Of a stretch of 64,000 bases of DNA, positions 2,108 through 7,980 are shown one piece after another; position 1 is the first letter of the stretch; the number at the start of each line of letters is the position of its first letter. The stretch is from a virus (Duplodnaviria; Heunggongvirae; Uroviricota; Caudoviricetes). The position numbers were made by a program, and so were the translations under genes. The DNA lies in IMG/VR virus record IMGVR_UViG_3300015615_000629, positions 1 to 64,000 of that record. One strand, given 5' to 3'. The notes below the pieces were generated by a model, which searched no databases, was not told the DNA's origin, and saw only the letters and a list, made by a program, of their open reading frames with translations.

Positions 2108-2278
2108 TTAACCGAATGGAGGGCTTAGTTCGTAATGCTTGTGCTTTCGTCGCGTGGTTAGTTGTGGCCGTACTTGTTCCCGGACGGCCGCACGGGTGAG
2201 TCTAAGTTTGTTGCTTAACTTAGCACGTATGCCAAGCAACCAACAAACCATAGTGTAAAATAAACAGAAGCCTTCCAT
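2108..2278 (-). CDS. 56-aa small protein (not in ORF track)
   Basis: AGGAGG SD, MEGFCLFYTMVCWLLG...; between motif 2312 and a terminator. Confidence 0.5.
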   Translation of the reverse strand: MEGFCLFYTMVCWLLGIRAKLSNKLRLTRAAVREQVRPQLTTRRKHKHYELSPPFG

Positions 2279-2340
2279 CCCACCCTCCTGAGTTAGCCTT
2301 GCCCGTTTTCAGGTACAGATAAAGGGTTCCGCCATTAAAT

Positions 2341-2375
2341 AAAAAAACCCCGTTATTCACGTTGAATAACGGGGT
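2341..2375 (-). terminator. intrinsic terminator
   Basis: ACCCCGTTATTCA/TGAATAACGGGGT stem plus U7. Confidence 0.8.
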
Positions 2376-2736
2376 CGGACATGCCTGCAACTGGTTGAGT
2401 GCTTCGATGGGCCGGCAAGTTCCCAGGGTTTACTTTTTAACCGAACAAACCCCAAACGAGCGTAGGTCAACCCGTATGCTGGGTTCCGAAGCACCGCAAT
2501 TTAACACTTAGGTTGGTTTTCTGCGGAGGATTATCCGTCCGGATAAGTTTAGGGTCTGTCCAAGACCCAGCTGAGTTTTAGGTCGTCCGAAGACCGGATT
2601 CTTTTTAGGTCATACCAGGACCGGATAACCTTATCGCGGCTCCACTTCGTCACTCATCGCAGGCTGCCGCCACACAACTCCAGAGTGCCTCCTCCTTCGT
2701 TGTACCGTCTGGGCATAGACGGACGACTATGATTGC
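2376..2736 (-). ncRNA. candidate structured ncRNA with repeated GGUC-stem hairpins
   Basis: No ORF of 60 aa or more; bracketed by motif 2746 and a terminator; several local and long-range stems. Confidence 0.5.
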
Positions 2737-4051: not shown

Positions 4052-5215
4052 CTAGGCGGCAAGGTGCAACACGTTTGCCGCTGCCGTATCCAGGGCCAAC
4101 CGCTCATCGCCGTGAGCGTCAAGGGTCTGGCTGTATGCCGTAATCCCCTGAACCGCAGCCCAAGCACTTAGCGGGTTGTAATTCCACTTTTCAGCGTCCT
4201 CGACACCAAGGCCAATCGCAGCACGCAACACCTTCTGGCCAAGGGCTTGAATACGCTGCTTGTACAGCGTCTTGACGACATCCTCGACATCCTTGCCGAG
4301 CACCAAACCCTTTGCGGCCTGAATCTTGCGAACGTAAGGCGTCGAATCCGCCGACAACGCATCGGCCATCGCCGATTGAATCAACGCCGTGACCTTGACC
4401 ATGTCCAAGTCACCCTTATGAATCAATCGGGTGCGGTTAATCTTGCTGGCATCCCACACGATATGGTTGCTGCAAGTCCAACGGTAGAAGAAACTTGTGA
4501 CCGAAACGCTACCAGCACCGACCTCGCTGTTGCTGATAAACACACCTCGGCCCAAACCGCCATCGGTTCCGTCGTCAATCGGACGGTCATTGTTCACCAG
4601 ATAGGTGAACATATCGTGGTCCGAAAGATACAGGCCAGCGGGGGCAATCTTGTCGCCAACCTGAACAATCGTGCGACAACCCCGAACGTCATCCTCCGTA
4701 GCAAGGCGGCTGCCGGGTTGATTCGGCAAGGCGGGGCGGGCGGGAGGGTTCTTCCAACCCCAATTGTCCGCAAACCGATTCACCACGCGGAGGATATCGC
4801 TATTCCACACACGGGAATAGATTTGCGTCGTCGCGGCATGGAGCGAAGCCCCATCGCTGCCGGCTCGAAGCAAGCATTGGGCATTCCCTTCGCGGGCGGC
4901 GTCGTCAAAGCCGTAATTGATACAGGGGGCCGCCAAGTGAGCGGGAACCTTCCGCATCGATTCGGCGCTCATGCCCGCACGGGCACAGATTTGCGAAAAC
5001 GCATAATGCGTCGGCACTGCTTCGCCCTTGGACGAGCGAATAACGATATCGCCGGCATCGTTCGCAGCCGCACGGAATTCCGCCCAAGGCACCTCGGCCG
5101 TGCGGGAACTTCGCTTGTAAATTTCGGCTTGACGTTCCATTTCGGCCAACGTCCAAAAGCGTTCGTCGGCGGGACGTTCGGCCCATTGTCGGTGAGCCTT
5201 CATTAGTTCGGTCAT
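4052..5215 (-). CDS. DUF932/DUF945-family protein
   Basis: HYAFSQIC and ISNSEVGAGSV..FFYRWTCSN motifs; GGAG SD. Confidence 0.7.
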   Translation of the reverse strand: MTELMKAHRQWAERPADERFWTLAEMERQAEIYKRSSRTAEVPWAEFRAAANDAGDIVIRSSKGEAVPTHYAFSQICARAGMSAESMRKVPAHLAAPCINYGFDDAAREGNAQCLLRAGSDGASLHAATTQIYSRVWNSDILRVVNRFADNWGWKNPPARPALPNQPGSRLATEDDVRGCRTIVQVGDKIAPAGLYLSDHDMFTYLVNNDRPIDDGTDGGLGRGVFISNSEVGAGSVSVTSFFYRWTCSNHIVWDASKINRTRLIHKGDLDMVKVTALIQSAMADALSADSTPYVRKIQAAKGLVLGKDVEDVVKTLYKQRIQALGQKVLRAAIGLGVEDAEKWNYNPLSAWAAVQGITAYSQTLDAHGDERLALDTAAANVLHLAA

Positions 5216-5444
5216 GACTTTTCTCCAAGTGTCGTGTCAGAAACCACGCCGACTTCGGTACAGGTTAACCGTTTGCCGGCCTCTGTCAAGGTTCTGCAAG
5301 CACCGTGCTTGCCACGCCAACTTCAGGTACAGATAAATCTCAGATTTAAGCCTATAAGAGAGGATTTAATCCCTCTCTAAAGAAAAAAGGATTAAAAGCA
5401 TGATCCCATTAAAGAGATTCATACTTTTAATCCTATTAAAAGGC

Positions 5445-5602
5445 CGCCACAACTAGGACTCGAACCTAGAATTCTTCCCTTTGCTTGACTGGTCTGACCA
5501 AGCAAACACAAATCTTCAGGACTCTTATCCTTTAGCGCTACGGATAAGGACCAATCCCTAAATTTGCAAGAAAGCGTGTTGCCAAATTACTACTACTGTG
5601 GC
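5445..5602 (-). tRNA. tRNA-like RNA (possible Cys-GCA) with 84-nt insertion in the anticodon loop
   Basis: GCCACAG/TTGTGGC acceptor, CTTTC/GGAAG anticodon stem, CTAGG-TTCGAGT-CCTAG T arm. Confidence 0.7.
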
Positions 5603-5988
5603 ATTGGTTCAGGTACAGATAAACGTTCCAAAAGCATATCTGTATAGTAATCGGCAGTCTGGTAGATAAATCCCTCTCGTCTTGAATTCTGCATACTTAT
5701 CAACCATTGAACTGTGTTGTGAGCCACCACAACCATCACCTCAGTGACGATAAGTAATTTGTGCCGGTTCATCTCAAGATCATGATCATACTTTGCCCTA
5801 GTAAGATCAAGATGATCGTTTGTGTAAATCTTTACGCCATCAGTTCTTAGCGTAAGAGAAACAAGACTGCCGTCTTGACACAAAGCAAACTTCTCTTTTA
5901 ATTTACACAAACTTTCTTTAGTTATGTGTACCTCGGCACACAAGGCCATGTGTAGACCTTCATGTGTTGCATCACAGAGAAGTTTCAT
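5593..5988 (-). CDS. hypothetical protein
   Basis: ORF in an ATGA-coupled chain. Confidence 0.65.
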   Translation of the reverse strand: MKLLCDATHEGLHMALCAEVHITKESLCKLKEKFALCQDGSLVSLTLRTDGVKIYTNDHLDLTRAKYDHDLEMNRHKLLIVTEVMVVVAHNTVQWLISMQNSRREGFIYQTADYYTDMLLERLSVPEPMPQ

Positions 5989-7642: not shown

Positions 7643-7846
7643 TCACCAATTAATGTATTCTCGCAACTGAGATTCGTCCACCCTTGCCCTCGTCACACCC
7701 TTAATGGTTTTAACTTTATCGTATTCCTTTTCTTGAATCTCCCTGAATTCGCCAAGAAAAGACCAACTGTAATACCCCTTGGGCTCCCGACCTAAAGCAC
7801 GCATGACTTTAGAACGGGCTCGGTGACTTTTAATGCGAATGAACAT
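7643..7846 (-). CDS. hypothetical protein
   Basis: Start moved to ATG 7846; the longer ORF runs through the tmRNA-like gene. Confidence 0.6.
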   Translation of the reverse strand: MFIRIKSHRARSKVMRALGREPKGYYSWSFLGEFREIQEKEYDKVKTIKGVTRARVDESQLREYINW

Positions 7847-7848
7847 AG

Positions 7849-7980
7849 TGGACACGCTGGGAATTGAACCCAGATCCGTCATAGTTGCAGATTTACCACA
7901 AAGTCTTTGTAAACGCATTTAACTTTGTTGGAATCCAATCCAGGCAATCTCTCGGCTATACGTCGATACCTTTCGTGCCC
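7849..7980 (-). ncRNA. ssrA: mini tmRNA-like RNA (132 nt)
   Basis: 5' GGGCACG-AAAGGTATCGAC, 3' CTGGGTTCAATTCCCAG-CGTGTCC-A; G3.U70 and A73 alanine identity; no D stem. Confidence 0.7.

Follow-up and report, generated by a model that had tools for sequence, protein, structure and literature searches.

A phage genome of 572,167 bp, complete and with terminal repeats (IMG/VR record IMGVR_UViG_3300015615_000629; its first 64,000 nucleotides are called the window below), carries on the minus strand, at positions 5445–5602, a 158-nucleotide (nt) tRNA-shaped RNA gene in which a structured insert of 84 nt takes the place of the anticodon loop. We suggest that the product of this gene is probably a stable, non-decoding, tRNA-derived scaffold RNA that carries a folded payload and acts unspliced. 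It belongs to a very small new family, met in two versions, within the known kind of tRNA-like non-coding RNAs. The elements of the RNA, all on the minus strand, are as follows (bp, base pairs).

5445–5602: the whole 158-nt RNA gene, with G1 at 5602 and the discriminator G158 at 5445, placed by sequence reading, the match of covariance model R1 (below) and covariation
5596–5602: acceptor stem, 5′ strand, RNA 1–7, forming 7 pairs with 5446–5452 (RNA 151–157)
5576–5593: D-type arm, RNA 10–27, with GG in the loop and a weak stem in which A12 is bulged
5569–5574: anticodon-type stem, 5′ strand, RNA 29–34, pairing with 5474–5479 (RNA 124–129)
5479–5562: the 84-nt insert in the limits of the preliminary description, RNA 41–124; the functional module is about RNA 35–123
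5508–5567: helix P, RNA 36–43 with 88–95, enclosing helix H1a, the GGUC bulge and hairpin H1
5549–5552: 4-nt bulge GGUC, RNA 51–54, inside a conserved AUUGGUC, between H1a and H1
5524–5548: hairpin H1, RNA 55–79, with a 7-bp stem and an 11-nt loop holding the palindrome AGCGCU (5534–5539)
5480–5506: hairpin H2, RNA 97–123, with a 10-bp stem and a 7-nt loop CAGACCA (5490–5496) that contains GACC
5453–5469: T arm, RNA 134–150, CUAGG-UUCGAGU-CCUAG, with a perfect 5-bp stem

The evidence for a selected fold comes from a homologue in a second, uncultured phage. The DUF932-family gene downstream of the RNA has one close relative, 87% identical, on four short ENA contigs (L089–L092); two of these hold a complete RNA homologue of 163 nt, the other two hold identical partial copies, and the gene order (an upstream 131-amino-acid open reading frame (ORF), the RNA, the DUF932 gene) is common to both phages. 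Built on nothing but the window copy, the covariance model R1 matches the homologue over its full length at 71 bits (E about 7e-18). The first 13 nt of the RNA, its last 7 nt and a GCC-plus-U trailer behind it are identical in the two phages, and the 5′ 28 nt are near-identical, while the upstream protein encoded there is just 35% identical. The insert of the relative, at 89 nt, is 40% identical to that of the window, with an identity of 31% in paired columns and 54% in unpaired ones.

Despite this divergence no helix is broken. Standard pairs occupy all 92 pair cells of the structural alignment (46 pairs in two phages), and 23 of the 46 pairs have changed on both sides; when partners were slid by 1–3 columns as controls, 41–50% of cells paired with 1–4 double changes, and none of 500 shuffles reached the observed values. 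RNAalifold independently gives the same fold and adds the D-type helix, a sixth U.G pair in the anticodon-type stem, and the 10-bp form of H2 with a 7-nt loop in both phages. The changes are spread unevenly: the acceptor stem is invariant save for G7.U becoming G7-C, the D-type helix shows one switch from U-A to A-U, and the anticodon-type stem has double-sided changes in two pairs and keeps its U.G in both phages, as against double-sided changes in three of the five T-stem pairs, six of the eight pairs of helix P (the other two changed on one side, none broken), all seven pairs of the H1 stem, which still pair, and four of the eight modelled pairs of H2; all six pairs of H1a are kept. A comparison of this kind had been proposed in the preliminary description as a check for an unconserved insert and broken stems, and it found the stems intact. 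On this covariation the insert is evidently a selected fold, kept through compensatory changes in two phages.

The same covariation effectively refutes the reading of the locus as a decaying tRNA pseudogene split by an inserted element, or as a chance likeness, to which we give almost no probability. A 5-nt direct repeat, GCAAA, borders the insert (5563–5567 and 5480–5484, minus strand) and resembles a target-site duplication, and tRNA finders do not call the locus. Against this stand the 23 compensatory changes with no broken pair, the fully conserved ends beside a 35%-identical protein, the conserved promoter spacing described below, and the fact that the insert is single-copy in the phage genome. 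The flanks of the relative at the repeat positions read GUGAG and GUAAG, and UUGCAA is itself palindromic; the repeat may be the remnant of a target duplication, or it may merely consist of strands that helices P and H2 require.

As to the tRNA body, the observation of a tRNA-shaped locus with an insert is confirmed, and the resemblance exceeds chance. The acceptor stem, GCCACAG/UUGUGGC, consists of six Watson–Crick pairs and G7.U, with C3-G as its third pair; U8 follows the acceptor strand, GG stands in the D loop region, and the anticodon-type stem CUUUC/GGAAG of 5 bp, extended by the U.G pair, leads to the sequence UUGCAAA at the position of an anticodon loop. The variable region is 4 nt long, and the T loop, UUCGAGU, has the tRNA consensus (UUCRA type). 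Sequence reading bears out the discriminator G (G73 in tRNA numbering, RNA G158) named in the preliminary description, as well as the insertion at 5479–5562 with its two named hairpins and all other coordinates given there. The same description called the cloverleaf elements complete, which holds for the acceptor, the anticodon stem and the T arm; the D arm falls short of it, since its stem as drawn by RNAalifold (G10-C27, U11-A26, A12 bulged, G13-C25, U14-A24) is the weak point of the cloverleaf. A genome scan for T-arm plus acceptor modules returned 4–5 spurious pairings, and such a pairing alone proves little, because an acceptor pairing within 330 nt is fairly frequent by chance. ARAGORN, run with or without introns (0–400 nt), does not call the locus, and the Rfam tRNA model RF00005 has no match there, either at its gathering score or with E relaxed to 1. 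That the body descends from a tRNA is confirmed by the covariance models: R1 and R2, the latter built from both sequences, match genuine tRNAs at 20–35 bits (E about 1e-6), and in the related viral records searched they recovered only ordinary tRNAs, at about 16–35 bits.

The RNA is nevertheless most likely not a decoding tRNA, to judge from three features that are not conserved between the two phages: the triplet of the anticodon, U33 and the linkers of the junction. At the anticodon position the window has the loop UUGCAAA, the relative UAGUGAG with A at 33, and the triplet is GCA in the one and GUG or GUA in the other. Helix P, which holds the triplet, is rebuilt from other letters in the relative. 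There are eight registers at which the insert can be deleted to leave a 7-nt loop, and deletion in silico at each of them made the remainder Cys, Phe or Leu here and Tyr or His in the relative, with no identity or anticodon in common, while the acceptor stem and G73 stay constant across both phages despite these differing identities. G73 fits none of the bacterial discriminator rules for Cys, Tyr, His, Leu or Phe. The genome has about 40 tRNA genes, every one of them on the minus strand; two are suppressors, and a conventional tRNA-Cys(GCA) lies at 341765–341843.

These data also bear on the alternative that the locus is an intron-containing tRNA gene, from which an undescribed endonuclease and a ligase, acting at or close to position 37/38, remove about 84 nt so that a working tRNA is left, a route also proposed for the 'enigmatic' introns of Lak megaphage tRNAs. 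The insert lies at the usual site of tRNA introns, the anticodon pairs with it as in many pre-tRNAs, ARAGORN calls a tRNA after its removal, and the GCAAA repeat marks its borders; a relaxed bulge-helix-bulge on UUGC/GCAA, present in this copy only, predicts cuts at 37/38, short inserts in megaphage tRNAs offer a precedent (PMC6784885), and two genes for RNA-ligase-family proteins (PF09414) lie on the minus strand of the genome at 68421–68879 and 124044–124514 (109.5 and 82.5 bits). We nonetheless consider splicing unlikely. The products would differ in identity between the phages in spite of an identical acceptor stem and G73, the relative would have A at 33 in most registers of its loop, and a normal tRNA-Cys(GCA) already exists in the genome. 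The relaxed bulge-helix-bulge (a 2-nt bulge, UUGC/GCAA, an AAA bulge and 2 pairs) cannot form together with the covarying helices P and H2, and the relative has no such motif. Searches of the complete phage genome for the splicing endonuclease (PF01974) and for RtcB (PF01139), a check suggested in the preliminary description, found neither, with the controls matched; Rnl1 had no match either, and that blank is uninformative, as the Rnl1 control matched no genome. An elaborate fold with fixed loop motifs is not needed in an excised spacer, and no allele without the insert was found in pattern scans of IMG/VR, JGI metagenomes and GTDB genomes or in a scan of 25 viral records with R2. Of the two readings first proposed, the unusually short intron is in this way disfavoured, by the differing identities after deletion, the lack of a shared bulge-helix-bulge and the lack of an endonuclease or RtcB match, and the tRNA-scaffolded non-coding RNA gains support from the covarying insert fold and the unconserved triplet, U33 and linkers. 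The background given with them, that bacterial tRNA introns are self-splicing ones of group I or II, and far longer, and that short introns at 37/38 depend on archaeal or eukaryotic endonucleases, we judge to be sound.

In the folded RNA there is no closed 7-nt loop; the anticodon-type stem opens into a three-way junction with two arms. The first is helix P, within which the GCA triplet is buried, continued by the 6-bp helix H1a (RNA 45–50 with 80–85), the GGUC bulge and H1, and the second is H2. Three parts of the insert are invariant, namely the GGUC bulge within AUUGGUC, the AGCGCU of the H1 loop and the GACCA of the H2 loop, and GGUC remains unchanged while the stems around it diverge. The bulge is exactly complementary to the GACC of the H2 loop, and we infer that the two pair in a tertiary contact that would hold the arms side by side; neither of them varies between the two phages. 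Other three-way-junction folds likewise use a contact between a bulge and a loop to align two arms.

Such an architecture recalls the hammerhead, and a new small self-cleaving or self-splicing ribozyme could be envisaged, the more so as CUGAAGA in the window copy fits the hammerhead CUGANGA box. That box reads CUGGGUG in the relative, however, and all junction linkers vary (2, 1 and 1 nt in the window copy as against 6, 4 and 1 nt), which speaks against a catalytic core and likewise against a fixed cleavage site; moreover, no ribozyme family of Rfam matches at E up to 10, and at 84–89 nt the insert is far below group I size. We regard a ribozyme as very improbable. The hammerhead reading was rejected for its unconserved core in the relative. 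A group I intron does not fit either: it takes about 200 nt or more with a P1–P9 catalytic core, and there was no group I match at E up to 10. Manual inspection also disposed of a nested tRNA or mini-cloverleaf, as the ends of the insert form no acceptor-like closure.

The sequences around the RNA suggest that it forms a unit of its own. The elements concerned, again on the minus strand, are the following.

5608–5623: promoter-like motif TTTATCTGTACCTGAA (16-nt definition), separated from G1 by a 5-nt spacer (5603–5607)
5438–5444: 3′ trailer, GCC and a U-run, directly after the discriminator and identical in the relative
5322–5337: the copy of the promoter-like motif that comes next and serves the DUF932 gene downstream
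4052–5215: downstream gene of the DUF932 (PF06067) family, named from the precomputed Pfam label of its homologues

The motif core ATCTGTACC ends 9 nt before G1, the distance reported in the preliminary description. Counted over the whole genome, the core TCTGTACC has 74 minus-strand copies, 68 of them at the two genome ends, and 7 plus-strand copies; minus-strand copies of the full motif, TTTATCTGTACCT(G/T)AA, stand for example at window positions 118, 2018, 8604 and 14600. In 20 of the 74 copies an ATG follows exactly 5 nt past the 16-nt motif, where 1.4 would be expected, which points to mRNAs with no leader or almost none, and G1 of the RNA occupies the same position behind the motif as those ATGs do. 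The relative has many copies of the motif and the same 5-nt spacing to G1. Its distribution suggests a phage promoter at which leaderless or near-leaderless 5′ ends arise; a processing site with this effect is less likely. At the other end, the GCC and U-run trailer is likely to be a 3′-end or processing signal of the RNA; beyond it lie AU-rich hairpins and then the next motif copy, which in the relative begins about 10 nt after the trailer, and a simple terminator scan downstream of the RNA found no canonical terminator. Because this next motif copy serves the DUF932 gene, the RNA appears to be a separate unit.

The 131-amino-acid ORF upstream stops inside the 5′ end of the RNA in both phages, and the U-run follows the RNA directly, so that the RNA might instead be a cis-acting element for processing, stability or termination, a tRNA-like 3′ end of the mRNA of that ORF that punctuates early transcripts and has no function in trans. 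Punctuation of transcripts by tRNA-like structures is known in other systems and provides a precedent. An element of this kind would hardly be expected to have its own promoter-like motif, which both phages place 5 nt ahead of G1, and a processing signal would need far less than the conserved three-way junction and its invariant loops; we think this reading improbable, more so than splicing. The end of the ORF (window 5593–5623, minus strand) reads CCA CAG TAG, the conserved C-terminus of its protein, LSVPE, is the promoter motif read as codons, and TAG TAG TAA follow in frame in a genome that carries an amber suppressor tRNA.

Homologues of the DUF932-type protein on the other side number in the hundreds, at about 40% identity, and come from contigs of plasmids, phages and genomes; the protein has no match in a direct Pfam scan or among PDB sequences. 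Its gene has a leader of 105 nt with a second, degenerate motif copy and a repeated GUYGGCGUGG. A distant homologue (L094) has no RNA upstream of it, so the RNA is not generally linked to DUF932.

Searches for further members of the family returned none. An 8-kb megablast against GenBank phages found nothing, the flanking proteins used as bait in IMG/VR recovered no relatives, and the 131-amino-acid protein matched only itself in a set of 5.8 billion proteins. Pattern searches with exact and degenerate DNA patterns (T arm plus acceptor, four conserved motifs, conserved ends) in IMG/VR, JGI metagenomes and GTDB genomes gave no real homologue; one metagenome match (L093) was rejected as a GC-rich chance match without a T arm. 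The nearest named relative of the phage, LR756511.1, with a 595-kb genome and a terminase 46% identical, lacks the promoter motif (0 copies of the core), the flanking genes and the RNA throughout, and in the corresponding position it has an ordinary tRNA-Leu(UAA). Run over 26 other viral records, R2 found ordinary tRNAs only, and 25 terminase-related records yielded no further member. Rfam at E up to 10 gave nothing consistent at the locus, no publication came up for PRJEB19935 (the project code that two of the ENA contigs bear in their record names), and in the literature no description of this RNA was found.

The genome scan turned up other oversized tRNA-shaped genes in the same phage. One family of about 125–129 nt is enlarged by about 55 nt inserted behind the D region, and its members share a hairpin and an ACAAAC motif; its copy here lies at genome positions 286702–286830 (minus strand), beside a tRNA(UCA), and LR756511.1 has three copies, also on the minus strand (289134–289258, 291102–291229 and 291311–291437). 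A tRNA with anticodon UAU at 321585–321686 (minus strand) stands out by its variable region of 31 nt, folded into two hairpins, and ARAGORN calls it in intron mode only, as His. Two modules of about 70 nt at 318063–318133 and 339308–339377 (minus strand), each an acceptor and T arm with the same AAAAG/CUUUU T stem, are not called by ARAGORN and may be D-arm-poor tRNAs.

We propose the following model for the RNA as an unspliced scaffold. The phage motif would direct transcription or 5′ processing such that the 5′ end falls at G1, in which case RNase P would not be needed, and the conserved GCC and U-run would set the 3′ end. The tRNA body would supply stability, tRNA-type end processing and access to tRNA-binding proteins, with the three-way-junction module as the payload; within this module the pairing of the GGUC bulge with the GACC loop would lock the two arms side by side into a rigid unit that displays the palindromic AGCGCU loop. 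What the payload does is a more tentative matter. Our leading suggestion is that the RNA might bind and titrate a host or phage protein that recognises tRNAs, for example a defence nuclease directed at anticodons or a factor of translation or modification, to which it would present no cleavable or decodable anticodon loop; the suggestion is weak, and we hold it to be possible rather than probable. Equally speculative, and more doubtful than the scaffold itself, is the wider proposal that a rigid, pseudoknotted three-way-junction payload, on a tRNA body produced from a promoter starting at G1 with no need of RNase P, traps or redirects a tRNA-recognising host factor and so represents a new class of phage counter-defence or takeover RNA.

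Several observations weigh against the scaffold. The phage encodes the two PF09414 RNA-ligase-family proteins, ARAGORN accepts the insert-deleted remainder as a tRNA in both phages, and for megaphage tRNAs short introns without an explanation have been described (PMC6784885). The comparison involves only two distinct sequences, and the alignment used for the pair counts was fitted to the model's own structure. Finally, the GGUC/GACC contact is backed by conservation and complementarity, with a probability of chance occurrence of about 0.02 for one sequence.

The case has a bearing on how such loci are annotated. Huge phages have many tRNA-shaped genes that standard finders miss, and short inserts in them are labelled 'introns' though no splicing route for them is known in bacteria; here the evidence favours a chimeric RNA with a function over a spacer destined for removal. 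If confirmed, it would be a new family of phage non-coding RNA and a natural counterpart of the engineered tRNA scaffold, and such loci would then have to be counted with care, whether as decoding tRNAs or as signs of tRNA splicing in bacteria. The GGUC/GACC and AGCGCU motifs provide direct handles for experiment.

Among known systems, the closest in setting are the 'enigmatic' tRNA introns of Lak megaphages (Devoto et al. 2019, PMC6784885), which are likewise structured inserts of well under 200 nt in the anticodon loop of tRNA-shaped genes of huge phages, without a known splicing route and without a class in Rfam. Those introns, however, interrupt tRNAs that are normal in other respects and whose anticodon can be assigned, they are almost the same in sequence from genome to genome, and alleles without them exist (PMC6784885), whereas here the anticodon is unconserved, the insert has diverged in sequence with its fold kept, and no insert-less allele was found in the collections scanned.

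Transfer-messenger RNA (tmRNA; RF00023) resembles the 158-nt RNA in joining an acceptor and T-arm domain to a large internal domain that is not tRNA, and so does a mini-tmRNA-like RNA encoded in the window at 7846–7980 (minus strand), which is phage-encoded behind the same upstream motif. This mini form is 132–135 nt long, matches RF00023 at 47.3 bits with its internal domain almost wholly missing, and has the promoter-like motif 7 nt ahead of it; it is the only RF00023 match in the window, which does not extend to the 158-nt RNA locus. LR756511.1 has a 134-nt homologue of it at 2250–2383 (plus strand) as well as a full-length tmRNA elsewhere in its genome (341280–341632), which indicates that the mini form is a conserved separate gene and not a degraded tmRNA. 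In a loosely tmRNA-like manner, the full-length 158-nt RNA could itself receive CCA and an amino acid and act as a charged adaptor on or near the ribosome or in non-ribosomal transfer. Unlike the other stems, the acceptor stem is conserved in sequence, as are G73 and the 5′ 28 nt, which suggests recognition by a synthetase or another enzyme of the acceptor end, and the mini-tmRNA-like gene lies 2.2 kb away behind the same motif. The 158-nt RNA differs from tmRNA, however, in keeping an anticodon-type stem and in having G73 in place of A73, no G3.U70 and no tag reading frame; the tmRNA model does not match it, and its identity set is unrecognisable. We consider a charged adaptor improbable, about as much so as the cis-acting element or very slightly less.

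Bacterial Y RNAs such as YrlA, some of them phage-encoded, reportedly join a tRNA-mimicking module to a protein-binding helix (work ascribed to Chen and colleagues in 2014), and share with the 158-nt RNA the character of a non-coding RNA with a tRNA-like module. YrlA has its tRNA-like part inside the molecule and a Ro-binding stem built from its 5′ and 3′ ends, whereas in the 158-nt RNA the ends form the acceptor stem; no Y RNA family of Rfam matches the locus at E up to 10. The stable RNAs C and D of phage T4 (species 1 and 2) are about 120–140 nt long, are associated with tRNA genes and have tRNA-like ends, so that, compared by description only, they too are phage-encoded RNAs of the stable type; we know of no three-way-junction module at the anticodon position described for them.

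In architecture, the nearest likeness is the tRNA scaffold for recombinant RNA, said to have been engineered by Ponchon and Dardel in 2007, in which a folded RNA replaces the anticodon loop. There as here a folded RNA sits atop the anticodon stem, and the tRNA body of the engineered scaffold gives stability and processing, as we propose for the phage RNA. To our knowledge, a tRNA body with a folded module in place of the anticodon loop is known only from such engineered scaffolds; these are laboratory constructs, whereas the phage RNA is a natural gene with a promoter-like motif of its own.
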